64,000 nt of DNA from Mytilus edulis (GCF_963676685.1 NC_092353.1:20371307-20435306); one strand, 5' to 3'. Positions 35,975 through 64,000 are shown, counted from the first letter of the stretch. Notes: a model not told the origin generated them from the sequence alone. Numbers and translations: made by a program.

Positions 35975-38042
35975 CTCAGAGTTAAAGGTAATAATTTATC
36001 AGAATCAGGCCGAGATACCAGTTGGGGGTCGTCTAAGATTTTTTCGAGACAATTGGGAAAAAATAACAGACGATCAATGGGTCTTGTCAGTAATAGCAGA
36101 GGGTTACAAACTAGAGTTTCTAGAAATGCCATTTGGGACAGGCATACGGAAAACCTCTGTGTCTTTAAAAGACTCGGATATTTTAATCCAAGAAATAAAT
36201 ACTCTTATAGAAAAAGATGCTATAGAACCTGTTCGCCAGCAAGATGCAGCAACAGGTTTCTACAGTACGTTTTTTCTAGTCCCCAAAAAGAACGGGACAA
36301 TGAGACCAGTAATAAATCTCAGACCCCTCAACAGGTATCTCAAGAAAATACATTTCAAAATGGACACTCTCACAAAAGTATTAAACTTAGTAAAAATAGG
36401 AGACTGGGCCATTTCTCTGGATCTAAGCGATGCTTATTTACACATCCCAATTTTTCAGAAGCATCCCAAGTTTCTCAGATTTTCGGTTCAGAACCGGTGT
36501 TATCAGTGGAAAGTTCTTTGTTTCGGACCAACTTCGGCTCCGAGAGTCTTTACAAAAATGGTTTCCGTAGTAGCGGCTTTTTTGAGAACTCAAAATGTAA
36601 GACTAGTAGTATATCTAGACGATTGGCTAGTAGTCAATCAAAGCAAGAATCAATTATATCAAGATCGAAAGAAATGTCTCGATCTCCTAAATTCACTAGG
36701 TTTTCTCATCAACAGAGAAAAATCAAGTCTAGTGCCAACTCAAAACTTGATATACTTAGGGGGGCAGTTTCATTTGGACAAGGGACTTGTTTGCCCAACT
36801 CAGGAAAGAATAGACAAATTGAATATGGCAATACTAATTCTTTCATCAGGGAATGCAGTGTCAGCATTTCACTTCCTACAATTACTAGGCATAATGGCAT
36901 CTTGCATAGAGTTAATTCCGAATGCACGCTTGTTCATGAGACCGGTTCAACTACATCTCCTCTCATTTTGGAGACCAAGTTGTCAGGATCTTTCCATAAA
37001 GATCCCAGTTACACCACATCTGAAATCACATCTCAGTTGGTGGAAAGATTCAGCAAACACGCTGAGAGGCCAATATTTTCAACTGGCTCAAACCTCTGTA
37101 ACCATAACGACAGATGCTTCGAAAACCGGGTATGGGGGTTTTATGAACAATCAAATTTTTCAAGGGGAATGGTCAGAAATGCAGAGCAAGAAACATATAA
37201 ATTCCCTAGAATTGGAAGCAGTGTTTTTAACGCTGAAACACTTCCTAAATCAGTTGAAAGGTCAATATGTTCTGATAAGATCGGACAATACCACAGTGGT
37301 CCAATATATAAACAAACAAGGGGGGACGAAATCGCCCACTCTTTGCTACCAAACATGGGATTTATGGAATCTTGCAATTCAAAACAATATTCGAATGAAG
37401 GCTGCTCATATAACAGGAAAATTGAACATTTTAGCAGACCAACTCAGTCGAACCAAAATTCAACATACAGAATGGTCTCTGAACAAACTTGTGGTTCAGA
37501 ATCTATTTCAAATTTGGGGAACTCCTCTCATAGATTTATTTGCCTCAATAGACAATCGTCAGACAGAAATTTTTTGTTCATGGATCCCACATCAGAAAGC
37601 CTTAGCTCTGGATGCTTTGACAATTTCATGGGAGAGAATGTACGCCTATGCTTATCCCCCAATTTGTCTGATCCCAAAAGTCTTGCAATATATGAGGCAG
37701 TACCAGTGTCAGATTTTGTTGATAGCTCCCCAATGGCCACGGAGACATTGGTACCCAGAGCTGCTACAATTATTGATAGCAGTCCCCATCAGGATACCAG
37801 TAATTCCGGAATTGTTATGTCAACCGAAAACTCGGATTTATCATCCCAATCCACAAGTTTTCAAGCTGACTGCATGGCTTCTATCAACGAACGGTTTACA
37901 ACAGAAGGCTTTTCTAAAGGGGTTAGAGAGTTACTCTCCGCCTCATGGCGAAAAGGTACTCAAAAAGATTACTGCTCAAAATTCAGAAGGTTCAATAGCT
38001 GGTGTAGTACAAGGAAAATTGATCCCTATAAAATATCTTTAA
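35892..38042 (+). CDS. DIRS-like ORF2: reverse transcriptase, RNase H and a C-terminal DIRS-type domain (716 aa)
   Basis: RT motifs PVINLRPLN, LDLSDAYLHIP and VVYLDDWLV (YxDD box). RNase H motif ITTDASKTGYGG...HINSLELEAV. C-terminal conserved block LIDLFAS...AYAYPP...LLIAPQWP characteristic of DIRS elements. Confidence 0.85.
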   Translation: MTLGKKIKKRKQVATGILFGSQRKTVADSELKVIIYQNQAEIPVGGRLRFFRDNWEKITDDQWVLSVIAEGYKLEFLEMPFGTGIRKTSVSLKDSDILIQEINTLIEKDAIEPVRQQDAATGFYSTFFLVPKKNGTMRPVINLRPLNRYLKKIHFKMDTLTKVLNLVKIGDWAISLDLSDAYLHIPIFQKHPKFLRFSVQNRCYQWKVLCFGPTSAPRVFTKMVSVVAAFLRTQNVRLVVYLDDWLVVNQSKNQLYQDRKKCLDLLNSLGFLINREKSSLVPTQNLIYLGGQFHLDKGLVCPTQERIDKLNMAILILSSGNAVSAFHFLQLLGIMASCIELIPNARLFMRPVQLHLLSFWRPSCQDLSIKIPVTPHLKSHLSWWKDSANTLRGQYFQLAQTSVTITTDASKTGYGGFMNNQIFQGEWSEMQSKKHINSLELEAVFLTLKHFLNQLKGQYVLIRSDNTTVVQYINKQGGTKSPTLCYQTWDLWNLAIQNNIRMKAAHITGKLNILADQLSRTKIQHTEWSLNKLVVQNLFQIWGTPLIDLFASIDNRQTEIFCSWIPHQKALALDALTISWERMYAYAYPPICLIPKVLQYMRQYQCQILLIAPQWPRRHWYPELLQLLIAVPIRIPVIPELLCQPKTRIYHPNPQVFKLTAWLLSTNGLQQKAFLKGLESYSPPHGEKVLKKITAQNSEGSIAGVVQGKLIPIKYL

Positions 38043-38875
38043 GTCAGATAGCTGATTTTTTATCATATTTATTTGATAGTGGTTTGCAATACAGAACAAT
38101 TGCAGGGTATCGCTCAATGTTGTCCACGGTATTACCTCCAATAGATAATTTCCAAATTGGACAACATCCTAAAATAATTCGATTGATTAAAGGTGTTTTC
38201 AATACAAGACCTCCAGTTGCAAAACTATTACCTGAATGGGATTTGCACGTAGTATTAAGAATGTTAGAAAATAGTCCTTTTGACAATGTTGAACAAATGA
38301 CTTTAAAAGATTTGACTTTAAAAACTGTATTCTTAACTGCCATTACTACTTTCAGGAGATGTAGCGATCTGCAGGCACTAAGAACGGATGAAGGCTCCAT
38401 GAGAATACAGACTAAAGGAATTACGTTTATAAGACATGGCCTAGCCAAACAGGATAGGGAGAAACATTTTGGAGCAAAAATTTTCGTACCTACATACACT
38501 GAGAATACCTCTTTAGATCCACGGAAAAGTCTGTTACAATATTTAGATAAAACAAAACCGTTGCGTAAAAAATTACAACAGGACCAAAGAGGAAAATTAT
38601 TTTTAGCTTTATGTGAACCTCACAAACCAGTTACCTCTCAGACAATTTCACATTGGATTGTTCAAATTATTAAACAGGCTTATTCTGATTTTGAATATCC
38701 AGGGAAAGGGAAAATACATGCGCATTCTACAAGAGCTATTGGCCCAACTTGGGCATTCTTTAAAGGAGCATCTATCAATTCGATCTTAGAATCTGCAGAT
38801 TGGAGTTCAGAATCTACCTTTAGTAGATTTTATTTGCGTGAATTAGATGTAAATGTGTTACAGAAAATAGACTAA
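37733..38875 (+). CDS. DIRS-like ORF3: tyrosine recombinase (C-terminal about 380 aa of the 940-aa open frame 36053-38875, which overlaps ORF2 in another frame)
   Basis: N-terminal core-binding-like region (LLSASWRKGTQKDYCSKFRRFNSWC). Catalytic-domain motifs: R in TTFRRCSDLQAL, HAHSTRA (H-x-x-R) and the terminal SESTFSRFYLRE (catalytic Tyr). Confidence 0.75.
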   Translation: MATETLVPRAATIIDSSPHQDTSNSGIVMSTENSDLSSQSTSFQADCMASINERFTTEGFSKGVRELLSASWRKGTQKDYCSKFRRFNSWCSTRKIDPYKISLSQIADFLSYLFDSGLQYRTIAGYRSMLSTVLPPIDNFQIGQHPKIIRLIKGVFNTRPPVAKLLPEWDLHVVLRMLENSPFDNVEQMTLKDLTLKTVFLTAITTFRRCSDLQALRTDEGSMRIQTKGITFIRHGLAKQDREKHFGAKIFVPTYTENTSLDPRKSLLQYLDKTKPLRKKLQQDQRGKLFLALCEPHKPVTSQTISHWIVQIIKQAYSDFEYPGKGKIHAHSTRAIGPTWAFFKGASINSILESADWSSESTFSRFYLRELDVNVLQKID

Positions 38876-44019: not shown

Positions 44020-44544
44020 CTGTAAATAAACCAGAAACATATAATAAACAAGACAACAAATATGATAATGATCGATCTTTAGGGAAGACATGTAGACATT
44101 AGGGAGGTTTTGAAATTTGTGTCAAATGTTAATAGCTCATAAAAAGGTCATTACATACAACATGTGTACTCTGTAAATATATTCGTTAATAGTCAAGTGA
44201 AATTATTAGTTAAATTTGGGGATACATATAGATACATGATATATATAGTCCTGTATACAGTGAATTCAAAAATTCTTGTGAGGTTCACATTCATCTGAAT
44301 AATGTGACTGGGAGTGGGTTTGTATCACATTAATTGAAACTTTCATTCTGATATCAAGTTAACAACTCTGTATGAATATTTTCCTGGAATCACAATAATT
44401 AAACTTGCCTTTAAGTCCATTCTTAACCAGATGCTCTGCAGGGTGCAGCTTTATACGGCCGCAGAGTTCGAACCCTGAACAGTTGACACAGAATAAATGT
44501 GGTCTAAGAACTTAAACTTAAAAACTTATAAATTTTTTAAATTG

Positions 44545-45200
44545 GACATTTACCTATTATGGTCCAATATCCAAAATCTAAATACATGGTTAGATTCAGC
44601 ATATCAAAGAACCCCAAGAATTCAATTTTTGATGAAATCAAATATAGTTCAATTTTGGACCCTTTAGACCTCAATGTGGACCAATTTGATAACCGGGCCC
44701 AAATATCATAATTCTAAATGCATGGTTAGATTCAGCATATATCAAAGAACCCCATATATTCAATTTTTGTTGAAATCAAACAAAGTTTAATTTTGGACCC
44801 CGATTTGAACCAACTTGAAAACTGGGCCTATAATCAAAAATCTAAATACATGTTTAGATTCAGCATATCAAAGAACCCCAAAGTTTCAATTTTTGTTGAT
44901 ATCAAACAAAGTTTAATTTTGGGACCACGATTTGGACCAACTTGAAAACTGGGCCCATAATCAAAAATCTAAGTACATGTTTAAATTCAGCATATCAAAG
45001 AACCCCAAGAATTCAATTTTTGTTAAAATCAAACTAAGTTTAATTTTGGACCCTTGGACCTTATTGTAGACCAATTTGAAAACGGGACCAAAAATTAAGA
45101 ATCTACATACACAGTTAGATTCGGCATATCAAAGAACCCCAATTATTCAATTTTTGATGAAATCAAACTAAGTTTAATTTTGGACCCTTTGGGCCCCTAA
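44545..45200. repeat. Tandem repeat family 1: 5 copies, period about 117-138 bp (unit contains TTAGATTCAGCATATCAAAGAACCCCAAGAATTCAATTTTTGATGAAATCAAA...TTTTGGACCC)
   Basis: The TTAGATTCAGCATATCAAAG motif recurs at 44590, 44726, 44864, 44981 and 45113. Confidence 0.85.
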
Positions 45201-45660
45201 TTTTTAAACTGTGGGGACTAAAACTCCCAAAATCAATCTCAACCTTCCTTTTATGGTGTTTAAATTTCATAGATTTCTATTTACTCATACTAAAGTTATG
45301 GTGCCAAAACCAAGAAAAATGCTTATTTGGGCCCCTTTTTGGCCCCTAATTCCTAAACTGTTGAGACCAAAACTCCCAAATCAATTCCAACCTTCCTTTT
45401 GTGTTCATAAACCTTGTGTTTAAATTTCATAGATTTCTATTTACTTTTACTAAAGTTATTGTGCGAAAACCAAGAAAAATGCTTATTTGGGCCCTTTTTT
45501 GGCCCCTAATTCCTAAACTGTTGGGACCAAAACACCCAAAATCAATCCCAACCTTCCTTTAGTGGTCACAAACCTTGCGTTTAATTTTCATAGATTACTA
45601 TTTACAAAAACTAAAGTTATAGTGCGAAAACCAATGTGCCAACGTCATACCAATATACGA
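45191..45660. repeat. Tandem repeat family 2: 3 copies, period about 150-160 bp (GGCCCCTAATTCCTAAACTGTTGGGACCAAAACTCCCAAAATCAATCCCAACCTTCCTTT...CATAGATTTCTATTTAC...CCAAGAAAAATGCTTATTTGGGCCC)
   Basis: GGCCCCTAAT recurs at 45191, 45341 and 45501. Confidence 0.85.
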
Positions 45661-45793
45661 CCGCAAACATTTTTTGCGGTCGTATAAAAAGTCACAATAA
45701 TAATATAAATGCACACAATAATTTCTTAATTCACAGTTTTAAATCCAAGAAATGAAATTTGGGCAACTAATAAAAATGCTCTTTGAACAGTAG

Positions 45794-45817
45794 GTATATA
45801 TATATATATATATATAG
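45794..45817. repeat. (TA)n microsatellite, about 12 units
   Basis: Direct reading. Confidence 0.9.
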
Positions 45818-46728
45818 TGTCTGGCAAAGATCGTGTTCTTTTCAAGTGAATTCGTCCACTTTTTTTCGGATGCAGATCTTGTGGGGTTTTTTTTTCGTGA
45901 TAAAACAAGTGCTATTTCCTAATTATAACAGTCTTATTTGTGACTGTCCATCTTATTTTGAATACTATACATGTTTAGAGCAAAAAAGTCACAAAATATT
46001 ATTGTACAGTGAAACCTGTTTTTAGAGACCAGTAAAGTTAAGGGAGAACAAAAAAGTGGTCTCTCATGAAGACATGTAGTCTTTTATTACAGGTTCAAAC
46101 TATATGAAATGTACTACAGCTAGAGGGATCTAAATTTATGGTCGTATGATACAGGGTTTTGCTTAATACAGATGGTCTCTTAAGCAGGTTTGACTGTATT
46201 TAACTTAAAATTTTGTGATTTGCATTGTCCATGTTTTTTCGAGAGCAACATTTAAACATCCAGGTTTTGTAACAAATGGTCTGAGTTTGAAACAACATAT
46301 CTGAATTTGAAAAATTATGTCAAAGCGTTGCATGTTAATGAATGGACATTGTTTGGCAGCCTACTCACCGCCATATATCACCAAATCAATAACTGACTTT
46401 TTTTCCTTAAAAAATCTAGTTTAAAATCAACCACCTTCAAAATGATGACTAAGGGAAATAACTCCAGCTCAGTTTATGCCATTTATTGAAACCCTAATAT
46501 CTATATGGTTTCTCATACTTCAATTTTTTTTTTTTTATTTCTTGATAACATTTAAATTCAACTGTCCAGATGAATGAAAACTAATAAAAAAAAGGTAAAA
46601 TTGTTGTTATATTGGTCATTTGAATTCTGTTGGATTATAGTTTTCGCATTGTAATCATACCCCACATCTTCTTAGTATAAAATTCTAAAATCTGGAAATT
46701 GGTAAATGGCGAGTTCTATGATGTTTAC

Positions 46729-46857
46729 CTTTTTAGTGACAATATATGATATAACTCCTCCATTATTAGTTATCTTTTTCCTGATTTCTGTCTTTTTCTT
46801 AAAGTTGACACTGGTTGTCAAATCAAGGACAATTTGACAATCACTAAATATCGACAT
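46729..46857 (-). CDS. PARP4: PARP4-like exon 1 (coding): initiator Met and BRCT domain, N-terminal half (MSIFSDCQIVLDLTTSVNFKKKTEIRKKITNNGGVISYIVTKK)
   Basis: ATG at 46855-46857 (minus strand), donor GTAAAC. Comparable to the human PARP4 N-terminus …GIFANCIF…KKKLQTDIKENGGKFSFSLNPQCTHII. Confidence 0.75.
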
Positions 46858-48427
46858 CTTTTATCTGAAAAAAAAATCATGGATCAAACACAGATTATAA
46901 ACCATTCATGATAGAGATACTAAATAAATAGACTCATAGAAGTATGCTGGTCTTGGAATTTCACACAGGATGATAATCATTGTTAAAGGCCAAGCAATGA
47001 TCTACAGGCCTGCATAAATACATGTCACTTGGTCATTGGTGGATATGTGACTCATTGGCAATCATACCACTTCATCTTTTAATTGAGAAAATAAAGAGAC
47101 GTTTAAGAGTATGTGTCTATGTGAACAGGCTTGAAAAGAAGATGGATAATATGAAAAGATATACCTGTTACAGCTACAATTGTTCCAAATTCTCATCTGA
47201 AAAACACTCTAGCTATTGTGATTCTACTTTAATTGATTGACTGCAAATAAAAAAAAATGTATATTTAGTTATGGTATAAATTTTAATTTGGTAGTTTGGC
47301 TTATACATGTACAAAGAATCATTTAAAAATACCAATTAAGGTATTACAGTTATGAACAAATTAATTATAAAGACTTTGTAACTTATTATTCTACTGAATA
47401 AAGTTATATATAGGAAAGGCATCAATTGCTTTCACAATATATATGATCTTACATCCAACAACACATTACTTTTTTTACATGTTCTTTTTCTCAAACCCTT
47501 TTCTCCTGATACAACTTCAGTCAGATTATCCGATTTTTTCTTAAAGTCATAAGAAACGAGTGACAGGTGAAAAATAAGGTTCTTCCAATTCTTGAACCAA
47601 TGCATACAAACATCATAAACTTAGTCTTCTGTGCACAAATTTATCATTTTGTTCGTGTAATTTTCGTATAATCGTCAATTTTTTTTCTCAATTAGTCAGT
47701 GTTGTTGTGAAAATATGGCAGGTAATTAAAGTTCGTGTTTTGAAGACAAAGTTTAACGATTGTCACCTGTTTGTAAACAATCAACAAAATATCAACAAAA
47801 AAGCATGGAATTGAGCACATGTTTAACATGTAAATTCAGATAATAGTTTATTTTAAGGACATCCATGCGTATTGCGATCACCAGATTTTTACGAGATGGG
47901 TCACACTGAGGTCACTTTGCATACGGAAAATATGTCAGGGAAATGCTTCCTGGAAGGAAGCAATTAAAATAAAGTAAACTTCTTCTTAATATGAATAAAT
48001 TAAAGAATTTTCTTCAGAAAAAAGTATATGAACATAAGTTTTATAATGAAAACTATCCATTGAGTTATAATAAAACATATGCATTATTTGTTTCTTATGA
48101 CTTTAAAACCTTTCTATTCCTGTGCATTGTTTGTTTATAATTCCTCTTTAAGGAGCATAGCAAGTACTAATCAAGTTAGAAAGTATGAGTGGAGGTGTAA
48201 AGGGTGGGTATGTTGGTATTTGAGGTGGGGGTGGCAAGATTAATAAATGTCTTCCTTGAAAGGTATTTGAAATTAGACATTAGAAATCACAACTTCATAA
48301 TTTCCAAGGAAATTTTTTCAATTGAAATTTTCCCTGGCATTTTTTCAATTGAAATTTTCTGACAGATATCCGGTCCCATCACTAGTGGACTCTATATAAC
48401 TTCAATTAATATAGTGAAGTTTCCTTA

Positions 48428-48709
48428 GGCAGCAATCATTTGATTTTCTGGGGGGGGGCTATGGTTTTTTTTTGAAAAAAAAGTTTGTTTCCAGGTTTTG
48501 GTGAAAAAAATAATTTGTTTTGGACCCTGAGTAAAAAAAATTGTTTGTTTCACCCTCAGCTGCCACTATATGTAATGCTAAAATTGAAAGAAAAAAATTG
48601 TCTTCGGTTTGTGCCTAAAAAAATAGATTGTTCTTCGCCAAAGGCGAAAAAAAAAGTTTGCACAGAAAAAAAAACCATAGCCCCCCCAGAAAATCAAATG
48701 GTTGCTGCC
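48428..48709. mobile_element. MITE, about 280 bp, with about 43-bp TIRs (GGCAGCAATCATTTGATTTTCTGGGGGGGGCTATGGTTTTTTTT) flanked by the 3-bp target-site duplication TTA; PIF/Harbinger (Tourist)-like
   Basis: 48428-48472 is the reverse complement of 48667-48709 with 1-2 mismatches. TTA sits at 48425-48427 and 48710-48712. The interior consists of A-run and GTTTG repeats. Confidence 0.65.
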
Positions 48710-49778
48710 TTAGCATTTGCTTAGAGTGAAAGCAATTACATTAGGTATGTGCACTCAAACAAGATTGTTATACGAGTAAAAATAGAGCAAAAATTACATT
48801 TATCTTATACTGACTAGTGCAGCTAAAAATACAAATCTCTTTAATAAGGCCATAAATGCATATATGTTTACCTACCTAGAAAATAGCTGCCTACTCAAAA
48901 TCTTTTATTGTACTGATGTGATCAAGTTTTTTCTTCTAATCATGAAGACTAAAAATATCTGACTTGAGTTTGCCATTAAAAAAAAACCCAAAATGTCTAC
49001 CTACATGTAGCTACCATGAGGGTAGTAAATGCCCTTTACCAAAAGGACGTCCAACGGTAATTTCTGGCTACCATTAGCATCAAATTGGTTAAATTTTACT
49101 GTGATTTGTCTACATATATATCCTTATTGTGATTAGTCAGAAGTCCCAAATAATAATCATAACAGTCATATTTGAATTTTTTTAAGTGATTTTTTGTCAA
49201 AATTGGTCGATTTTTTTATCATTAAAAATAAAGTACATTTTAACGTCATGCACCAAAAATTACTGATACTTTTATTATTTCCTCACTACATGAACTAGTG
49301 ACAGGAATTGCTTCCCTTAGAATATACAGTCCTCGGACAAAAGTGAGTTCCCACTCAAAAAATGTCATATCATTTTAACTAAAATCAATATTTTCAAAAA
49401 ATTATTACCAAGTAGCTCTTTGAGTGATTTTTATAAAATAGATACCATAAGATGCAGAATTATGTCTAAAGTTTTATTGTTTATTTGGCCATGATATTAT
49501 TCATGCTTATTTTAAATTTCTGACGAGGTGAACATGATGAAGAAAAATATTTCTTGAAAAGTTTGCTATGTATTCTAACCAAATTAAAATCGAAAAATTT
49601 GCATTAGTGTTTAACCCATTAGATAATGAAAACAAACCTCACCAAAATTATGGCCAAATAAACAAAAAAACTTCAGACATTTCTGCATCTTATGGTATTT
49701 TTTTTATTTATAAAAAGATTTACTTGGTAATAATTTTAAGATATATTTCGCCAAATCCAGGTCTGTTCGCGCCCATAA

Positions 49779-49896
49779 CAAGTTTTGGCATGCGCATTGC
49801 AATGGCCGGACAAATAGCCCTGGCACTGTCCGGCTAGCCAGACAAATAGTGCCAGGGCTATTTGTCCGGCCATTGCAATGCGCATGTCAAAACTTG
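49779..49896. repeat. Near-perfect palindrome: 47-bp arms (CAAGTTTTGGCATGCGCATTGCAATGGCCGGACAAATAGCCCTGGCA) with a 24-bp spacer
   Basis: The arms are reverse complements with one mismatch. A weaker dyad extends further out (49745-49770 AAATCCAGGTCTGTTCGCGCCC vs 50030-50060 GGGCGCAAACAGACCTGGATT). Confidence 0.85.
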
Positions 49897-49934
49897 ATTA
49901 CAAAGTCATTAAACACAAAACCAATAAAAAATTG

Positions 49935-50330
49935 GGCGCGAATGTGTAGGGTGTGAACGGACTTTGGGTGCAAATGTGTAGGGTGCGAAAGTGAAAGGGT
50001 GCGAACAAGACTGGGCGGGAACGGGAATGGGCGCAAACAGACCTGGATTCACAGGCTGAGGGTGCCCAGCCCCCTTATTTTGTTGAAAAAAATGGTTGAT
50101 TATTTAAGGAATCACTGAAGCTGGGAGTCCCTCCCCTTTCTAAAGCAGTCAGTGGTACACCCTAATAAAAATAGCCACTCCGTTTAAACAACAATCATGA
50201 TTTTCTAATTATTCAACTAGAATTTGCTTTAAAATTGGGTGCGAAAGTGTAAGGTGCGAACAGACTTTGGGTGCGAATGTGGGAGGTGCAAACGTGTAGG
50301 GTGCGAAAGTGTATTGGTGGGTGCAAACGG
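49935..50330. repeat. Degenerate tandem 16-18-bp GGGTGCGAA(AGTGT)-type repeats in two blocks (49935-50040 and 50225-50330) around the palindrome's outer arm
   Basis: gcgaatgtgtagggtgtgaacgg…gggtgcaaatgtgtagggtgcgaaagtgaaagggtgcgaacaag… and gggtgcgaaagtgtaaggtgcgaacag…gggtgcgaatgtgggaggtgcaaacgtgtagggtgcgaaagtg. Confidence 0.7.
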
Positions 50331-51452
50331 AGCTGATACCCACCGTGCCACTGCACCCCCCCTTTCCACCAAATTCTGCCCCTGCAAGTTTAAGAAGTTA
50401 TCAGTCAGTTAGTTAGTTGACATGATCCCGATTACCGATACCTTTTGTTTATTGCTATGCAGGTGAGTGTCAGTGTGTTTAGCCTACCGAATATTTTCCT
50501 GTCCTTCCCTAAAAGTAAATATTGAAATATTTGGAAATTCCCTAGAATTTTGCTGTTTTTGATCATTTGTAATTCAATATGATATCTACCTATGCAAATT
50601 AGTTGTTAACTTTAACAAATTTCTCGTTGCTGTTTGATTAATGCAGCATACTTTGCTTCAACAGGTCCCTGTCATGATGAATACAATAACTGCGTTTTTT
50701 TGTAAAATATTTGACAGTGATCGGGAAATTTATTTAAATGTTTAGGTTAACCTGAATGACTTCCTGTTCTAAAAATAACAATGATCTATAGATTTGTTTC
50801 TACAAAGTTCAAAGTTCAAAGTTCTTTATTTTCCAATTATTTTTTTCAAATATTTTATTGGACAAAGCACATATGATACAATGCGTATTCCAAGATACAA
50901 ACACATTAAACATGACAATTTATGCAAATACAACATAAAGAAACATTTCAAGTACTAATTATATATAATATCACAGTATTACACAGTATTATCACTTATG
51001 GTTAATGGCCCCTGACGGGACATTATGACATAATGACAACAATACACAATACATTCTGATTCTTAACACATAAACATATAATGAAGATAAAATTAAAATT
51101 ATAATTACACCTTATATAAGAATGCCAGCTTTTGATTGGCTGATAGCCAGTGTATTTTTCGCATATTCTAACATTTTTCCTCATTTCAAACGAATCTGGC
51201 TGTTTTTCACCACTGCCGGTGAATATGCCTCAAATACCATGGTATTTGCCATTTTGGATATTCCTTTTTTACCCTCGCGAGTATCTTCCCGCCATTTTTT
51301 TTCGGATATGACGTTACATAAAGACAGCGCGAACGCGTATAAGTACTTGTATAGTTCCCGCGGTATATTTTATGATAGAACTTGTCCTCAAATAAATATT
51401 TCCTTTTCCTAGTACAGAGAGTTTAAATTTAAATGTATTCGGTGTAATTAAA

Positions 51453-54066: not shown

Positions 54067-55207
54067 GTGTTATCTTCGGTTGAGTATATGTTATTTTATC
54101 TATGTCATATAAATTTATAAAGTGCATATTCTCATTTATCAAAAAATAAAATAAACTTTTCTATTATTATGGTTTCTATTACAATACAAAAAGAAATGAA
54201 TGTGATCTTCAATTTGTTTGCAGTTTTTACATAATCTTTTACAAGAAGGCACATACTAGGGAAATAATTTAAAATCTAAACATATTTTATACAATAATTT
54301 CATAAACTTTTTTTTTTATTGTGTATATACATTGTATATAGATAAAACATGGTTTTGATCTAGCAATATATATATATATAAACTGGGAACAGTATATCAT
54401 AAACATGGTTAATATATATGTTCCTGATATAAACGAGTCTAAATTGAAAACTACGTTCAAACCTATGGATAAAAACCGCAATTTTTATACGTGTGAATGT
54501 AAAACAAATTTCGTTGTAGAATGGTCTAAATACAGCACAAACAACATTTTCCAAAAGACCAAAAAAGTGAAAAAAGTATATTTAAACAAAACGCATTTGA
54601 CTAATATATATACTGTATTTAGACCTACTACAACGAAACTTGTTTTACATGCACACGTATAAAAATTGCGGTTTTTATTCAACGCAATCATAGGTTTGAA
54701 CGTAGTTTTCAATTTAGACGTGTATATATATATTCGACCTTTTAGTCAAATGCGTTTTGTTTAAATATACTTTTTCACTTTTTTGGTCTTTTGGTCGGTT
54801 TATCATTAGTATTCGGAGAGACCGAAGCATGACCAACGGTGGTCTTTAGCAGGGTTGTTGCTGCTGTGTAGGTAGTTTCGTCACATGTTGGTTCGCGAGG
54901 CTGAGAAACAGTAGTTGTACCTTCTGTGTTTGTCAAATGTGTATCGGTAATATTACCAATGGTCCTAGTGGTTATACCAGCAGTATTAAATATCGAGGTA
55001 AGTTAGATGGTTTTTGCAGCTGTTATACTAGTTTCGCAAGTTGTTTTGTCTGTAATCGTAGTATCATCTGTTGTAAATCTGATCGTCTGAATGTCAATTA
55101 TGAATGTAGACATTTTTGTTGCTGTTTCCGAGCTAGCTATTAATTCTGTCGTTACCGTCGATTTATTATTAAATAATTATCAGTGATAGTACCAATGGTC
55201 CTTGGGG

Positions 55208-55648
55208 TTATGCCAACAGTATTAGATATCGGGGTAAGTTGGATGGGTTTTTTTCAGCTTTTACAGTAGCTTCGCTAGTTGTTGTGTATGTCATCGTAGT
55301 ATCATCTGTTGTAAAGCCGGTCGTTGGAGTGTCATATATGAATGTAGACGGTTTTGTTTGAGTTTCCGAGCTAGCTATGATTTCCGATGGTTTATCATTA
55401 GTAATCGGAGAGACAGAAGCTTGACCAGCGGTGGTCTTTACCAGGGTTGTTACTGCTGTGTAAGTTGTTTCGTCAGATATTGGTCCATGAGTCACAGAAA
55501 CAGTAGCTGTACCTTTAGTGGTTGTTACATGTTTCTCGCTGATAGAACCAATGGTCCTAGTGGTTAAGCCAACAATATTAGATATCGAGGTTAGTTGGAT
55601 GGTTTTTGAGGTTGTGTCAGTAGGGTCACTAGTTGTTTTGTCTGTCAT
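55208..55648 (-). CDS. Mucin-like Thr/Ser-rich tandem-repeat gene: 3' ORF segment (146 aa), separated from the next segment by a 1-bp homopolymer indel
   Basis: Same 123-aa repeat consensus as the upstream segments. Ends where a T7 run (GGGTTTTTTTCAGC, near 55255) shifts the frame relative to sister repeats. Confidence 0.5.
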   Translation of the reverse strand: MTDKTTSDPTDTTSKTIQLTSISNIVGLTTRTIGSISEKHVTTTKGTATVSVTHGPISDETTYTAVTTLVKTTAGQASVSPITNDKPSEIIASSETQTKPSTFIYDTPTTGFTTDDTTMTYTTTSEATVKAEKNPSNLPRYLILLA

Positions 55649-55991
55649 CGTAGTAGCATATGTTGTAAAGCCGATCGTTTGAGTGTCATATATGAATGTA
55701 GATGTTTGTGTTGTCGTTTTCGAGCTTGCTATGGTTTCCGTCGTTTCCGTCGGTTTATCATTAGTAATTAGAGAGACCGAAGCTTGATCAGCAGTGGTCT
55801 TTAGCAGGGTTGTTGCTGCTGTGTAAGTTGTTTCGTCAGATATTGGTCCATGAATCTCAGAAACAGTAGTTGTACCTTGTGTGCTTGTTAAATAATTATC
55901 GGTGATAGTACCAATGTTCCTTGTAATTATGCCGACAGTATTAGATATCGAGGTAAGTTGGATGGTTTTGGCGGGTGTGTCAGTAGCGTCA

Positions 55992-57794
55992 CTAGTTGTT
56001 TTTTTCTATCATCGTAGTATCATCTGTTTTAAAGCCGATCGTTTGAGTGTTAGATATGGATGTAGACGTTTTTGTTGGCGTTTTCGAGCTAGATATTGTT
56101 TTCGTCGTTTCCGTCGGTTTATCATTAGTAATCGGAGAGACCGAAGCTTGATCAGCGGTGGTCTTTAGCAGAGTTGTTGCTGCTGTGTGAGTTGATTCGT
56201 CAGATATTGGTCCATGAATCTCAGAAACAGAAGTTGTACCTTGTGTGTTTGTTAAATAATTATCGGTGATACTAGTAGTACCAATGTTCCTTGTGGTTGT
56301 GCCAACAGTATTAGACATCGAGGTAAGTTGGATGGTTTTGGCGGGTGTGTCAGTAGCGTTACTAGTTGTTTTTTCTATCATCGTAGTATCATCTGTTTTA
56401 AAGCCGATCGTTTGAGTGTCAGATATGGATGTAGACGTTTTTGTTGGCGTTTTCGAGCTAGCTATGGTTTCCGTCGTTTCCGTCGGTTTATTAATAGTAA
56501 TCGGAGATACCGAAGCTTGATCAGCGGTGGTCTTTAGCAGGGTTATTGCTGCTGTGTAAGTTGTTTCGTCAGATATCGGTCCATGAATCTCAGAAACAGA
56601 AGTTGTACCTTGTGTGTTTGTTAAATAATTATCGGTGATACTAGTAGTACCAATGTTCCTTGTGGTTGTGCCAACAGTATTAGACATCGATGTAAGTTGG
56701 ATGGTTTTGGCGGGTGTGTCAGTAGCGTCACTAGTTGTTTTTTCTATCATCGTAGTATCATCTGTTTTAAAGCCGATCGTTTGAGTGTCAGATATGGATG
56801 TAGACGTTTTTGTTGGCGTTTTCGAGCTAGCTATGGTTTCCGTCGTTTCCGTCGGTTTATTAATAGTAATTGGAGATACCGAAGCTTGATCAGCGGTGGT
56901 CTTTAGCAGAGTTGTTGCTGCTGTGTGAGTTGATTCGTCAGATATTGGTCCATGAATCTCAGAAACAGAAGTTGTACCTTGTGTGTTTGTTAAATAATTA
57001 TCGGTGATACTAGTAGTACCAATGTTCCTTGTGGTTGTGCCAACAGTATTAGACATCGAGGTAAGTTGGATGGTTTTGGCGGGTGTGTCAGTAGCGTCAC
57101 TAGTTGTTTTTTCTATCATCGTAATATCATCTGTTTTAAAGCCGATCGTTTGAGTGTCAGATATGGATGTAGACGTTTTTGTTGGCGTTTTCGAGCTAGC
57201 TATGGTTTCCGTCGTTTCCGTCGGTTTATTAATAGTAATCGGAGATACCGAAGCTTGATCAGCGGTGGTCTTTAGCAGGGTTATTGCTGCTGTGTAAGTT
57301 GTTTCGTCAGATATCGGTCCATGAATCTCAGAAACAGAAGTTGTACCTTGTGTGTTTGTTAAATAATTATCGGTGATACTAGTAGTACCAATGTTCCTTG
57401 TGGTTGTGCCAACAGTATTAGACATCGATGTAAGTTGGATGGTTTTGGCGGGTGTGTCAGTAGCGTCACTAGTTGTTTTTTCTATCATCGTAGTATCATC
57501 TGTTTTAAAGCCGATCGTTTTAGTGTCAGATATGGATGTAGACGTTTTTGTTGGCGTTTTCGAGCTAGCTATGGTTTCCGTCGTTTCCGTCGGTTTATTA
57601 ATAGTAATCGGAGATACCGAAGCTTGATCAGCGGTGGTCTTTAGCAGGGTTGTTGCTGCTGTGTAAGTTGTTTCGTCAGATATTGGTTCATGAATCTCAG
57701 AAACAGAAGTTGTACCTTGTGTGTTTGTTAAATAATTATCGGTGATACTAGTAGTACCAATGTTCCTTGTGGTTGTGCCAACAGTATTAGACAT
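55992..57794 (-). CDS. Mucin-like gene: middle ORF segment (600 aa; about 5 near-identical 123-aa repeats with consensus …TTRNIGTTSITDNYLTNTQGTTSVSEIHGPISDETTYTAAITLLKTTADQASVSPITINKPTETTETIASSKTPTKTSTSISDTQTIGFKTDDTTMIEKTTSDATDTPAKTIQLTSMSNTVG…)
   Basis: Open frame kept across repeats whose length is a multiple of 3. About 40% Thr+Ser. Bounded at both ends (55991-56010 and 57843-57851) by T7 runs where sister repeats have T6. Confidence 0.55.
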   Translation of the reverse strand: MSNTVGTTTRNIGTTSITDNYLTNTQGTTSVSEIHEPISDETTYTAATTLLKTTADQASVSPITINKPTETTETIASSKTPTKTSTSISDTKTIGFKTDDTTMIEKTTSDATDTPAKTIQLTSMSNTVGTTTRNIGTTSITDNYLTNTQGTTSVSEIHGPISDETTYTAAITLLKTTADQASVSPITINKPTETTETIASSKTPTKTSTSISDTQTIGFKTDDITMIEKTTSDATDTPAKTIQLTSMSNTVGTTTRNIGTTSITDNYLTNTQGTTSVSEIHGPISDESTHTAATTLLKTTADQASVSPITINKPTETTETIASSKTPTKTSTSISDTQTIGFKTDDTTMIEKTTSDATDTPAKTIQLTSMSNTVGTTTRNIGTTSITDNYLTNTQGTTSVSEIHGPISDETTYTAAITLLKTTADQASVSPITINKPTETTETIASSKTPTKTSTSISDTQTIGFKTDDTTMIEKTTSNATDTPAKTIQLTSMSNTVGTTTRNIGTTSITDNYLTNTQGTTSVSEIHGPISDESTHTAATTLLKTTADQASVSPITNDKPTETTKTISSSKTPTKTSTSISNTQTIGFKTDDTTMIEKNN

Positions 57795-57837
57795 CGATGT
57801 AAGTTGGATCGTTTTGGCGGGTGTGTCAGTAGCGTCA

Positions 57838-60800
57838 CTAGTTGTTTTTTTCTATCATCGTAATATCATCTGTTTTAAAGCCTATCGTTTGAGTGTCAGA
57901 TATGGATGTAGACGTTTTTGTTGGCGTTTTCGAGCTAGCTATGGTTTCCGTCGTTTCCGTCAGTTTATTAATAGTAATCGGAGATATCGAAGCTTGATCA
58001 GCGGTGGTCTTTAGCAGGGTTATTGCTGCTGTGTAAGTTGTTTCGTCAGATATTGGTCCATGAATCTCAGAAACAGAAGTTGTACCTTGTGTGTTTGTTA
58101 AATAATTATCGGTGATACTAGTAGTACCAATGTTCCTTGTGGTTGTGCCAACAGTATTAGACATCGAGGTAAGTTTGATGGTTTGTGCAGCTGTTACAGT
58201 AGCTTCACTAGTTGTTGTGTCTGTCATCGGAGTATCATCTGTTGTAAAGCCAATCGTCCGAGTGTCAAATATGGACGTAGGCGTTATTGAGCTAGATATG
58301 GTTTCTGTCGTTTGACTTGGTTTATCATTATTAATCGGAGAGACCGAAGTTTGATCAGCTGTGGTCTTTAGCAGGGTTGCTGCTGCTGTAAAAAATGTTT
58401 CGTCAGATGTTGGTTCATGAGTCTCAGAAAGAGTAGTTGTATCTTCTGTGTTTGTCAAATGTTTATCGGTAATACTACCAACAATCTTAGTGGTAATGCC
58501 AGCAGTATTAGACATCGAAGTAAGTTGAATGGTATTTAGGTCTGTGTCAATAGCTTCACTAGTTGTTGTATCTGTCGCCGTAGTATCTTCTGTTGCAAAG
58601 CCGATCGTTTGAGTGTCAGATATGGACGTAGACGTTTTTGTTGGCGTTTCGTGTCTAGCTGAGGGTTCCATCGTTTTTGTCCATTTGTAATTAGTAATCG
58701 AAGAGACCGTAGATTGATCAGTGGTTGTCTCTAGCAAGTTTGTGGCTGCTGTGTGAGTGGTTTCGTCAGGTGGTGGTCCACGAGTCTCAGAGACAAAAGA
58801 TGTACTTTCTGTGTTTGTGAACTGTATTTCTGCGGTTGTACTAATAGTCTTGGTAGAAGTGCCAATATTAAGAGACATATGTTTAATAGTTGTAACAGTA
58901 TTTTCATCAGTTGTTGCGTCTGTCAAAGTCGTATCATTTATGCTAGTCCCAATAGTCTCAGTGTCAGAAATGGATGCCGGTGTTTTCACTGTATTTACTG
59001 TGCTCGCTATAGTATCCAACGTTTTCGTCGTGTTGTCATTGGTAATCGGAGAATTCGAAACTTGATCAGAAGTTATTTCTAGCAAGGTTATTGCTGCTGT
59101 GTGAGTGTTTTTGTCAAATGTTGGTCCTTGAGTCGCAGAGACAGTTGTACCTTTAACCTTTGTCAACGGAGTAGTTATAGTGTTTGTGGTAGTGTCAACA
59201 GCATAAGATATAGAGGTAAGTTCGATTGGTTTTGCGGATGTGACAATAGCTTCCCTTATAGTTGTGGCTGTCATAGCTGTTTCATCGGTCGTAGTGCCAA
59301 TCGTCAGACTGGAAGAAATGAATGCTGGAGTTTTAATTGGCATTGCTGTGCTAGCTATAGTCTCCGTCATTTCCCTCAGTTTATTATTGGTAGTCGGAGA
59401 GACCAGGGCTTGTTCGATGGTTGTCTCTAGCAAGGTTGTTGCTGCTGTGTGAGTTGTTGCGTCGGATGCTAGTTCGTAAGTCTCAGAGACAGTAGTTGTA
59501 CCTTCGGTGTTTATCAATGGGGTTTCTTCGGTAGTACCAATAGTATTTGATATAGAGGAAAGTTTGATGGTTTTTACAGCTGTTACAGAAACTTCACGAA
59601 TTGTTGTGTCTGTCATAGTCGTACCATCTGTTCTAGAGCCAATTGGCTGAGTGTTAGAAATGAATGCAGGTGTTTTCGTTTGGGTTTTTGAGCCAACCAC
59701 AGTTTCTGTCGTCTCCGTTAGTTTTGTATAAGTAGGCGGAGAGTACGAAGCTTGCTGAGCGGTTGTTGTTACGGTGCGAGTTGTTTCGTCAGATTTCGAC
59801 CCATGAGTCTCAAAGAAAGTTGTCCCTTCGGTATTTATCAACGGCTGTTCGGCAGAAATACCAACAATGTGAGTGGTAGTGCCAACATTATACGATATAG
59901 AAGTATGTTTGATGGTTTCTGCGGCTGTGACAGCATCTTCATCAGGTATTGCGTCTGTCACAGTGCTCCCATCTATTGTAAAGTCAGTTGTTTGACTCTC
60001 AGAAATGGTTGCTGCTGTTTTTGTTGGCGTTGCTGAGTGAGTTATAGTGTTCGATATTTCCCTCGGTTCATCATAAGTAATCGGAGAACTCGAAGCTTGA
60101 TCAGCGGTAGTCTCCATTAATGATATTGCTGCTGTGTGAGCCGTGTCGTCAAATGGTGATCCATGAGTCTCGGAAACAGTAGTTGTACCGTCGGTGTCTA
60201 TCAACCGTTTTTCTGCGGTAGTACCAACAGTGGTAGTTGTAGTGCCAACAATATTTGATGAAGAAGTGGGTTCGATAGTTTTTGCGGCTGTGACAGTAGT
60301 TTCATTAGTGGTTGTGTCTGTTGCCGTAGTATCATCTGTTGTAAAGCCGATCGCCATACTGTCAGATATGGATGTAGACGTTTGTGTTGGCGTTTCTGGT
60401 CTAGCTATGGTTTCCGTCGTTTCTGTCAATTTGTTATTAGTAATCTGAGAGACCGAAGATTGATCAGCGGTTGTCTCTAGCAAGTTTGCTGCAGCTCTGT
60501 GAGTGGTTTCGTCAGATGGTGATTTATGAGTCTTAGAGACAGTAAATGTACCTTCTGTGTTTGTCAATGGTGTGTCTGCAGTAGTACCAACAGTCTTAGT
60601 GGAAGTGACAGTATTAGAAGATAAAGAGGTAAGTTGGAAGGTTTCTGCGGCTGTAACAGTATCTCCATCAGTTATTGCGGCTGTACCAGTCGTATCATTT
60701 GTTTTAGTACCTATAGTCTGAGTGTCAGAAATGAATGGCGGTGTACTCCCAGGATTTGTTGTGCTTGCTATTTTTTTCGTTTCATTAGTAATCGGAGAGT

Positions 60801-62098
60801 TCGAAGCTTGAGTGGTTGTTTTATATAACGTTGATGCTGATGTGCGAGTTACTTCGTCAGATGTTGACCCATGAGTTTCAAACACAGTTGTACTTTCGGC
60901 TTTTATCAACGGCTGTTGGGCAGAAGTACCAACAGTGTTAGTGGTAGTGCCACCAGTTGTCGATATAGAAGTAAGTTTTATGGTGTCTGCGGATGTGACA
61001 GTACTAGTATCTTTATCAGTTATTGCGTCTGTAAAAGTACTACCATCTGTTGTAAAACCAATCGTTTGACTCTCAGAAATAAACGCCGGTGTTTTCGTTT
61101 GCGTTGCTGATCTAGCTATAGTGTCTGTCATTTCATTCTGTTCATCATAATTAATCGGAGAGCTCGAAGCTTTAGCAGCAGTTGTCTCTAGCAATGTTGA
61201 AGTTGCTGTGTAAGTTGCTTCGTCGAATTTTGGTCCTTGTGTCTCAGAGGCAGTTGTACCTTCTGTGTTTGTCAATTGAATGTAAGCGGTAGTGCCAGAA
61301 GTATTATATATAGATGTAAGTTCAATGGTTTTGGCAGTTGTGACAGGAGCTTCATCAATCGTTAAAAAGCCAATCGTATGACTCTCAGAAATGAATGCTG
61401 ACGTTTTTATTGGGGTTACTGAGCTAACTATAGTGTTTGTAGTTTCCATCAGTCTAATATCAGTAATTAGAGAGACTGAAGCTTGCTCAGCTGTTGTGTC
61501 TAGCAATGTTGTTGCTACTTGAAGATTTGCATCATCAGATGTTCGTCTATGAGTCTCAGATACAGTAGTACCTTCTGTGTTTGTCAATAGAATATCATCA
61601 GTTTTGTCAATAGTCTTAGTGGTAATGCCAGTAGTACTATATTTAGAAATAAGTTCGATGTTTTCTGTCGCTGCGAAAGCATCTGTATCAATTGATGTGT
61701 CTGTCACAGTCGTATCATCTGTATTAGAGGCAATCGTCTGAATGTCAGAGAGGGATGTAAATGTTTTTGTTGGCGCCATAGAGCTAGCTATAGTGTCTGC
61801 AAATCCCATTGGTTGGTCATGAGTAATTGGAGAGACCGATGATTTATAAGCGGTTGTCTCTAGCAAAGTTGTTGCTGTTGTAGGAGTTGTTTTGTAAGAT
61901 TTTGATCCATGGGTCTCAGAGACAATTGTACTTTTGGTTGTTGTTAACGGTATCCCAGCAGTAGTATCAAACGTGACGATTTTAGCTGCTTCAGTTGTTG
62001 TGGCTATTCGAGAAATTGATGTTAGTGTTTTCATTTGCGTTGTTGAAGTACCAGTATTGAGAAATTTTGTATTGTCTTTTGTTGTAGTGGTAATAGGT
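57838..62098 (-). CDS. Mucin-like gene: 5' ORF segment (about 1420 aa of diverged Thr/Ser-rich 123-aa repeats). The segment probably begins at a splice acceptor (TTTTTCAG at 62099-62106), not at a start codon.
   Basis: A 4.3-kb open frame through diverged repeats argues for selection on coding capacity. There is no ATG at the 5' end: the ORF opens at GTG/…RKKHIVKCIYSFSEPITTTTK with a strong acceptor immediately upstream. The true 5' exon(s) were not identified. Confidence 0.55.
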
Positions 62099-64000
62099 TC
62101 TGAAAAAGAGTAAATACACTTCACTATATGCTTCTTTCTTTACTGGTTGATGCTCTAAGTAAAACCTTTTATAAATGGGCTGCAGGCAATAGGCACGTTA
62201 TCTGATTCTATATCATGTAAAAGATGAGAGCTGAGAAAATATTTTAATAGGGCCGAAACTATCTTACGTGACTTTGGAGAACATGTTTCTTGATTTACAT
62301 GAAGACAATTTGCATAATTATTCCTCTCAAGATTAATCAAACTAGATGTAAAAATCGGCATTGATCATACTTTTTGTTTGATTTTCAGCCAAATCTGGAT
62401 CGTACTCGACTGTTAAACGTTCAATTTCAATGTTTTGCGACGTGTTCTTTTACTTGTATATGAATATCTTTAGCCTATACTGTTAAGTCCATTTTCCCTG
62501 AAATTTTTTTGACATGCCTCGGTATTCATATACTAGTATCCAGTCATTTTTGTATTGTGCTATGAACATTTTTTGTACTCTTGTCTTCCATTTTGGCTGA
62601 AGTGATGTGCTATTGGCCATTTTATTGACAGAGTTGTTTGTTTTTATAGTAATTAAATTTTAACACAATAATGACTACTCAGTTTTTGACATTTCTATCA
62701 TTTAAGTCTGTTTGTTTTGTTCACACATTGTTGTCAATATATTGCAATTTTAAGCGACTGCCATACAAAAGAGAGGATAAGCTAGCTAGAAAACCATGTT
62801 CAATCCACCATTTTCTACATAAGAAAATGTATGTGCCAAGTCAAGAATATGACAGTTGTTATCTATTCCTTTAATGTGTTTGAGCTTTTGATTTTGCCAT
62901 TTGATAAGCGACTTTCCGACTTGAATTTTCCTTGGAGTTCGGAATTTTTTGTCATATTATTTTTATGTTGCACGATGCTATTTTTACGAAGTGCTATAGG
63001 CAACAACGTTATTGGAATTTCGTCCTAATGCTTTTAGAGACACGGCGTTAATTTTTTTTGCTTTTTGCTATCAAACATACATTGTGCTTTATTTGTTGTT
63101 TTTGAATAAATCATGCCGTTGGTTTTTACTTTCGAATTGTTTCGTATTTTTTTTTTTATCCGATGGCATAGTATTTGTAGGTTAGACATTACTATGTCAA
63201 ACGTTATAATCATTAAATGACAATGATAAAACTTTATCAATAAATATTAAAATTACTAGTCGTTCCGTCATTAGACGCTTAATTATTTTGATAAACGTAT
63301 TGTTTTTATACTATAGCATCATTTCCTTTATAATCATTGTTTCTTAAAAAAAAATTACATTAAATTTTTTGTAAAGTATGAATAAATCAAGGCAAGAATT
63401 ATTCCACCTAACCTTTCCCTCCCTTTTCTAAATTCATTACAACAAAAAATCTTTTTGATCATGCACAAAACAGAAATTTTACAAATGTTTTAGATAATCA
63501 AAGATACCTTTATCTTAAATTGTGTACTTACTATCTTTTACACAAAATGTGTTTCCATCCAGTTTTATTTCACAAATCTCTGCTGACTGGCAGGGCTTTC
63601 TATGACATGGATCCAGTAGCGAGTCCTGAAAATATTGAGACGGAATCATGAGATAAAAGTATATAATACCAATGTAACCGCTGGTGTCTTTAATGATCTT
63701 CACAATGAACAAACAAGGCCAATATTTAATATTGAACAAAAACCAACTGGATAGATAATTATTCCACTTTTAAATGTGTTCTTGCTCATCCTCATCCGTA
63801 AGATCTTACAATTACAATAATATACACCAATTCATCTTTGAAATTTTGTATTTGCGCCAGACGCTCGTTTCATCTACAAAAGGCTCATCAGTAACGCTCG
63901 AATGATTAAAAGTTGAAAAGGCCAAATAAAGTATGAAGTTGAAGAGCATTGAGGATACAAAAAAATCCTTAGAGTGTTGTAGCCAAATACAGTCAAAGTA

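Follow-up and report, generated by a model that had tools for sequence, protein, structure and literature searches.

A frameshifted array of 123-amino-acid repeats in a Mytilus-specific mucin-like gene of Mytilus edulis

A stretch of 64,000 nucleotides of Mytilus edulis DNA (GCF_963676685.1 NC_092353.1:20371307-20435306), referred to here as the window, carries on its minus strand a tandem array of threonine- and serine-rich repeats of 123 amino acids (aa). We consider it probable that this array is the giant last exon of a Mytilus-specific mucin-like gene, that its reading frame is ended by the insertion of a single base into a run of six adenines (A6 to A7) at a junction between two repeat units, and that what lies downstream is a relic array undergoing decay. 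Two such A7 junctions, termed proximal and distal by their order along the gene, were found in the window. The distal one is real, because four independent assemblies from two species show it in identical form, and it is not very recent, because it is common to M. edulis and M. galloprovincialis. At the syntenic locus M. trossulus has a single intact open frame of 2408 codons with approximately 20 units, and it is therefore predicted that M. edulis and M. galloprovincialis make a shorter protein than M. trossulus. The reading frame of the array is conserved without conservation of its residues. The gene itself is already annotated, and as a Mytilus-specific mucin-like gene it is real but ordinary.

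The repeat array and its gene models

Tandem Repeats Finder (TRF) detected 9.9 copies of a 369-bp period with a 90% match at 55187-58818, together with a 238-bp variant period at 54942-55378. When one canonical 123-aa unit was used as a tblastn query, 19 full and three partial units with 47-100% aa identity were recovered between 54790 and 62085, which bears out the minus-strand Thr/Ser-rich 123-aa repeats described in a first-pass annotation of this DNA. That annotation also held that coding capacity is retained through the diverged copies, and the repeat frame indeed contains no stop in 1420 codons, as compared with 44-151 stops in the other five frames and about 80 in shuffled sequence. The window as a whole is approximately 32% G+C, with few long open reading frames (ORFs). 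Threonine accounts for 28.3% of the repeat residues and serine for 10.8%, while proline reaches only 3.7% and cysteine is absent. The minus strand is open from 62139 to 57841 (1433 codons), from 57851 to 55995 (619 codons) and from 56005 to 55211 (265 codons), with a step of +1 each time. Units U1-U11 have one-to-one counterparts in the other M. edulis and M. galloprovincialis assemblies and, in part, in M. trossulus; a peptide distinctive of U18-U19 is exemplified by TIQLTSISNTVGIITR.

The presence of a large Ser/Thr-rich tandem-repeat domain, here 19 units of 123 aa, places the gene in the mucin-like class, and to that extent the earlier description of it as mucin-like stands; it holds by composition and does not extend to homology with true mucin domains. 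A Pfam scan of the 1428-aa ORF described below, two units and the orthologue N-terminus found no VWD, C8, TIL, CK, SEA or transmembrane module, so that the gene is not assigned to the gel-forming or membrane mucins, and the repeat unit had no Pfam match in the ORF or in the two canonical units. AlphaFold2, run on the alignment of the 19 units, gave no confident fold (predicted local distance difference test score 48, predicted template modelling score 0.21). An exhaustive profile search of 1.84 billion representatives found the 123-aa unit in Mytilus proteins only; a stingray DMBT1-like CUB-repeat protein that emerged from the same search was rejected as a spurious match. Because the unit occurs only in Mytilus, the three mucin or glue-protein names attached to this one array ('mucin-22-like', 'mucin-3A-like' and 'Sgs-3-like') mirror composition and not homology.

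The minus-strand ORF at 57838..62124 (1428 aa) matches Mytilus proteins. The M. edulis RefSeq protein XP_071133558.1, 'mucin-22-like', is the ORF from 62034 to 57838 (-), with 100% identity over its whole 1398 aa. Orthologues are VDH98076.1/A0A8B6BYW0, an 'Apple domain-containing protein' of M. galloprovincialis (97% identity), XP_063404517.1, 'mucin-3A-like', at the syntenic locus of M. trossulus (61% identity), CAG2205454.1, and an ENA contig. A second M. edulis RefSeq protein, XP_071136882.1 ('salivary glue protein Sgs-3-like', 146 aa), corresponds to 55208..55648 (-), which is out-of-frame relic sequence of U19-U20; its listing as a separate protein is most likely an artefact that the frameshifted array caused in annotation. 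RefSeq divides one array into at least these two gene models. The public models either end at the first frameshift or begin at internal or intronic ATGs, and none describes how the array carries on out of frame. In the M. edulis RefSeq model the start is an internal methionine (62034), and the start ATG of the M. trossulus RefSeq model (9989-10001 of that locus) lies in the 3' end of an intron, where MKYIFSFLE... aligns with V-KCIYSFSE of the window, a stretch made up of the polypyrimidine tract and CAG. A full-text literature search found no mention of the five protein accessions in papers, and nothing relevant in the literature on Mytilus mucins, Apple domains or tandem repeats.

The order of elements in VDH98076.1 (1682 aa) is a hydrophobic leader, a PAN/Apple domain, a short cysteine-rich segment and then the repeats. 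This protein begins with MAPGDNMFIIRYVLFFLNVFSPGQTE, judged by eye to be a hydrophobic leader, and the only Pfam match in the orthologue N-terminus was to PAN_1 (PF00024; 27.0 bits against a cutoff of 21.4). Exon 1, which encodes the putative signal peptide and the PAN/Apple domain in 109 codons, lies approximately 1.7 kb upstream of exon 2 in both the second M. edulis assembly and the M. galloprovincialis assembly, and in M. edulis NC_092353.1 it is therefore placed beyond base 64000 of the window. The Apple exon is also kept in M. trossulus and in a paralogous M. galloprovincialis locus described below, and exons 1 to 3 were all located in M. trossulus, M. galloprovincialis and the second M. 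edulis assembly. Exon 2 of the window (Table 1) is bounded by the acceptor TTTTCAG and by the donor GTAAGT, which starts at 63531. Exon 3 begins at 62099, directly after TTTTTCAG, and the end of the open frame at 62100-62139 is intron and not coding.

Frame breaks across Mytilus assemblies

The loci compared were those of M. trossulus GCA_036588685.2 (L001), ENA ERZ6864376 (L002, an 8.6-kb contig), M. edulis GCA_905397895.1 (L003) and M. galloprovincialis GCA_900618805.1 (L004), the last of which had been polished with 110x Illumina data (PMC7653742). The four assemblies, or haplotypes, referred to throughout are the window, L002, L003 and L004, which come from separate projects and individuals.

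The first-pass annotation placed three frame breaks at runs of seven T, each where sister repeats have six T or a different sequence, and took the gene to be interrupted only by 1-bp indels. For the proximal and distal runs (A7 on the coding strand) this was correct. The successive window junctions read ATGATAGA(n)CAACT with n = 7, 6, 6, 6, 6 and 7, and since four sister junctions have six, the two breaks are true +1 insertions; both yield ...MIEKNN-TAG, that is, a stop two codons on. The third run is another kind of lesion, a gain of two nucleotides, and dropping one T from it gains only eight codons in a non-repeat frame. Nor are indels of 1 bp the only damage. The tail also contains a 131-bp deletion with its junction at about 55167-55170, which reduces a unit from 369 to 238 bp, an in-frame TAA codon at 55003-55005 (ATC-TAA-CTT-ACC in place of the ATC-CAA of sister units), and a last unit that is cut off at its position 87, at 54790, where it meets an inverted-repeat element. 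There is also a fourth T7, at 60771-60777, which lies in frame.

Table 1. Features of the repeat gene in the window (positions counted from the first letter of the window; U, repeat unit)
Feature	Position	Strand	Evidence or remark
Exon 2, Cys-rich, EGF-like-looking (DSLLDPCHRKPCQSAEICEIKLDGNTFCVKD)	63532..63625	-	tblastn with the N-terminus of the M. galloprovincialis orthologue
GT...AG intron separating exon 2 from the giant repeat exon	62100..63531	-	junction VKD|KPITTTT agrees with VDH98076.1 and CAG2205454.1
Exon 3, translated part, U1-U12, ending ...MIEKNN-TAG	57838..62099	-	100% identity to the RefSeq coding sequence over 1398 aa; stop at 57838-57840
Diverged units U1-U11	58219..62085	-	47-65% aa identity to the canonical unit
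Young block of near-identical 369-bp units, U12-U17	56001..58215	-	tblastn and unit identity matrix
U18-U19, past the distal frameshift, still open (265 codons)	55292..55999	-	83% and 67% identity to the canonical unit
Proximal T7, read as A7 on the coding strand, U12/U13 junction, +1	57845..57851	-	stop at 57838-57840; A6 in L002, L003 and L004
Distal T7 (A7), U17/U18 junction, +1	55999..56005	-	stop at 55992-55994; A7 in 4/4 M. edulis/M. galloprovincialis assemblies
Third T7, +2-nt lesion	55248..55254	-	GCTG-A7-CCC-ATCC; sister GCTG-CA5-CC-ATCC
Decayed tail, three partial units	54790..55250	-	lesions common to all four assemblies
Foldback or MITE-like element of interleaved inverted repeats, bounding the array on its 3' side	54427..54794	.	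abuts the cut-off last unit

The junction before the U18-type unit is A7 in the window and in L002, L003 and L004, all of which also share the tail lesions and the inverted-repeat boundary. Judged from this sharing, the distal frameshift predates the coalescence of the sampled haplotypes of both species. A control was provided by the unique part of exon 3 (U1-U12, 4239 nt), where 14 homopolymers of at least 5 nt, among them the in-frame A7 at 60771-60777, had the same length in all four assemblies (14/14). Homopolymer calls at this locus are reliable. A frameshift in a coding variable number tandem repeat (VNTR) can thus be checked without reads, by way of independent assemblies, and here the distal break was shown in this manner to be genuine and old.

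The proximal A7 is haplotype-specific, the same junction being A6 in L002, L003 and L004. It is nevertheless probably real as judged from the sequences, because four junctions of the same context were called A6 in the same assembly, because homopolymer calls elsewhere agree, and because internal A7 junctions are also present in the Illumina-polished M. galloprovincialis assembly.

The tail differs among the haplotypes. At the third T7 the window has G-A7-CCC, L002 and L004 have A8C, and L003 has GG-A8-C, and a second 1-nt indel polymorphism lies near 55110; because of these polymorphisms the tail is taken to behave like non-coding sequence. The inverted repeats at its 3' side have an A-B-A'-B' arrangement, with arms of 24-63 nt and 79-100% complementarity. 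Their junction with the array is retained, with small indels, in L002, L003 and L004, and they probably represent an old insertion of the foldback or miniature inverted-repeat transposable element (MITE) type that set the 3' end of the array.

Between the two A7 junctions of the window the units are nearly identical. The mutual DNA identity of U13-U16 is 97.8-99.7% in the unit identity matrix, in support of the recent concerted expansion proposed earlier for the units at 55600-58100. Clear orthologues of U12 and U17 are present in other haplotypes (98.9% and 99.2%, respectively), and U12 is approximately 5% diverged from the interior units. Comparison of repeat number across the assemblies showed that it varies in this interior block. 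The A-run states of successive junctions are 7,6,6,6,6,7 in the window, 6,7,7,6,7 in L004, 6,7 in L002, and 6,5,6,6,6 followed by the distal A7 in L003, so that the position of the first A7 junction differs among haplotypes.

The M. trossulus ORF ends within the array, with no further domain after it. Between this species and the window the ratio of nonsynonymous to synonymous substitution rates (dN/dS) is 0.89 (544 aligned codons, dS 0.139), and between haplotypes it is 0.72-0.94. The comparison with M. trossulus included 190 substitutions and no stops, where about five would be expected, given that 2.6% of possible substitutions create a stop. In the U1-U12 exon, the four assemblies differ by one indel in 4239 nt (3 nt, in frame), as compared with four indels in 1510 nt of intron and two frame-breaking indel polymorphisms in the tail of approximately 1.2 kb; every indel in the 5' part has a length divisible by three. 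These patterns indicate that the reading frame is under selection in the 5' part while the residues are almost free to change. The 5' 1419-1541 codons are open in all four haplotypes and the M. trossulus frame is intact, as expected if the minus-strand frame is kept at orthologous loci. Because those codons are open, the gene is regarded as shortened rather than demonstrably inactivated. The first-pass annotation had offered as one alternative a very recently inactivated or variable glycoprotein gene; variability was borne out in both repeat number and the position of the first A7, but neither inactivation nor a recent origin of the distal break was.

Explanations for the interrupted frame

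In the explanation that we favor, the product would consist of a signal peptide and PAN/Apple domain, a short cysteine-rich exon, and then approximately 19 Thr/Ser-rich repeats of 123 aa, and would be secreted and O-glycosylated. The M. edulis and M. galloprovincialis frame would have no dedicated C-terminus and would take its stop from the change of A6 to A7 at a unit junction (...MIEK-NN-stop). The distal A7 would be the old mutation, with everything 3' of it an untranslated relic array that is beginning to decay. U12-U17 would form a young block, growing and shrinking through unequal recombination, and unequal crossing-over may have spread A7 within it, leaving A7 junctions at differing places in each haplotype. 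In this haplotype the proximal A7 would stop the protein after 12 units (approximately 1560 aa); without it, the protein would run to 17 units (approximately 2175 aa). Because the last exon would contain the stop and a C-terminal domain is not required, the expected outcome is a shorter protein and not a null allele.

Several points weigh against this explanation. Expression of the locus is presumed, and the proximal A7 is probable rather than proven. L002 and L004 may have collapsed near-identical units and L003 has extra homopolymer differences even in the intron, and for these reasons the interior junction states of the three assemblies carry less certainty than the distal state. The three-exon structure is taken from the GenBank models of M. 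galloprovincialis and M. edulis, because both RefSeq models (M. edulis and M. trossulus) leave the Apple and cysteine-rich exons unjoined to the array. Finally, a dN/dS near 1, and an exon diversity (1.5%) that is not below the intron diversity (1.0%), would also fit a recent loss of function.

Such a loss, in which the gene in its entirety would have become a unitary pseudogene in M. edulis and M. galloprovincialis only recently, killed by the distal frameshift or by an earlier tail lesion and with its 5' part still open for want of time, is in our estimation rather improbable. The haplotype dN/dS and the exon diversity, at least equal to that of the intron, are what it would predict; the tail 3' of 55999 is pseudogene-like (the 2-nt gain, the 131-bp deletion, the TAA and the polymorphic indels); no transcript-derived protein was present among the databases searched; and with haplotypes diverged by approximately 1.5%, fewer than one new stop per haplotype is expected, which makes the openness of four haplotypes a weak test. 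However, no frame-breaking indel was found in 4.2 kb of four haplotypes while several occur in the intron and tail, every assembly has undamaged splice sites and intact exons 1 and 2, and a dN/dS of 0.89 is also obtained against the plainly intact gene of M. trossulus, so that a value near 1 is its normal regime. In addition, a truncation inside a repeat domain that has no C-terminal module need not abolish function.

An unlikely but still considerable alternative is that only the proximal T7 is a consensus error of this long-read assembly, the true ORF running through U13-U17 to the distal A7 for approximately 2034 codons in exon 3. The A6 at the U12/U13 junction of the three other assemblies favors an error there, as does the setting, since no sequence is harder to polish than near-identical 369-bp units; the next 616 codons are, moreover, open in the +1 frame, though this would be expected in any case of units diverged by no more than about 2%. 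The error would have to have spared the four neighboring junctions of the same context, which were called A6 in the same assembly, in a region where 14/14 other homopolymers are concordant across assemblies, and the internal A7 junctions of the Illumina-polished M. galloprovincialis assembly show that such junctions are not confined to the window. That all of the frame breaks are assembly artefacts hiding one ORF of at least 2300 codons, the other possibility raised in the first-pass annotation, is extremely improbable. Deleting one T per T7 does produce an open frame of 2304 codons, and M. trossulus has an ORF of 2404 codons, but the distal A7 (4/4 assemblies) and the tail lesions recur in four independent assemblies, and the third site is not a +1 change in a homopolymer but needs a 2-nt change, after which the 131-bp deletion and the TAA follow. 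Short of one error common to all four assemblies, these findings refute the proposal in this lineage; M. trossulus alone has a single ORF of at least 2300 codons.

We also consider it very improbable that recoding at A7, by ribosomal frameshifting or transcriptional slippage, restores the repeat frame and allows the downstream units to be translated. GA-A_AAA_AAC stands in phase as a canonical X_XXY_YYZ slippery heptamer, and long open frames follow each A7. Yet it is in the +1 frame (616 and 262 codons) that the repeats carry on, the -1 frame meets a stop after 38 and 23 codons of non-repeat sequence, and the downstream open frames are explained by the youth of the units (approximately 1-2% diverged); a run of seven A is also too short for efficient slippage. 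A programmed -1 frameshift at A_AAA_AAC was accordingly rejected as being in the wrong direction.

A different function for the junctions themselves is conceivable, although we regard it as quite unlikely: the A6/A7 tract could be a heritable length switch, resembling a contingency locus, that diversifies a secreted surface or mucus glycoprotein. Slippage between A6 and A7, together with unequal crossing-over, would shift the first A7 junction along the near-identical block, so that haplotypes would translate 12, 13 or 17 repeats and retain the remainder of the array as an out-of-frame, still-open reserve that a single-base change could re-expose. Mussels are known for extreme gene presence/absence variation.

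The gene shares with the proline-, threonine- and serine-rich (PTS) or VNTR domains of animal mucins, and with Sgs-3 of Drosophila, long Ser/Thr-rich tandem repeats in one huge exon with a variable copy number, but it has no sequence homology to either and its proline content is low. In mucin-type domains the residues drift while frame and composition persist, and the window gene resembles mucin tandem-repeat domains in its poor residue constraint, its retained frame and composition, and its lack of a confident fold. The human MUC1 VNTR offers a parallel for the frameshift: in autosomal dominant tubulointerstitial kidney disease due to MUC1 (ADTKD-MUC1), a single C is inserted in a C7 run of one unit. 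Here, as in MUC1, one extra base in a homopolymer of 6-7 nt, within a near-identical coding VNTR that is hard to assemble and genotype, shifts everything that follows. Unlike in MUC1, where a long neo-peptide results from a rare pathogenic allele, the shifted frame stops after two codons and the change is one that two species carry in fixed or common form. The gene adds one more fast-evolving, copy-number-variable, genus-restricted and putatively secreted glycoprotein, and could bear on the biology of mussel mucus and surfaces.

Neighboring loci and other features of the window

The downstream neighbor of the array is a PARP4-like gene, in M. trossulus as in the window. Blocks at 44374-50791 (-) of the window are 73-85% identical to the start of the M. 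trossulus PARP4-like gene that lies downstream of the array, BRCT, PARP, VIT and VWA domains are annotated for this gene in L001 and L004, and gene order and orientation are the same in M. edulis, M. galloprovincialis and M. trossulus. A minisatellite with a 15- or 32-bp period (2.6-4.9 copies) lies at 50235-50313, between the array and the PARP4-like gene.

A paralogous locus was found in M. galloprovincialis (UYJE01005694.1, 9983-22558 of the locus designated L005), with other neighbors (SCAN and TRPM2-like) and a similar architecture of an Apple exon, a cysteine-rich exon and approximately 12 repeat units. Its gene model, VDI39534.1, ends after 1.5 units, where the frame is shifted by a deletion of 10 nt at about 16913, and in the new frame an open stretch of 1069 codons comes next. 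This is a second frameshift-interrupted array of the family, and its break is not at a homopolymer.

Elsewhere in the window, 101.5 copies of a 53-bp satellite (93% match) occupy 25737-31071 and are the source of the strong GC and AT skew at 26-31 kb. This region was considered as a second mucin array and rejected, as its period is not a multiple of three, it contains only short ORFs, and the 53-bp satellite is non-coding. A DIRS-like retrotransposon is present at 34313-38875 (+), with overlapping ORFs of 553, 716 and 940 aa that match RVT_1 (E = 9e-22) and, weakly, RNase H and Phage_integrase with SAM-like N-terminal domains.

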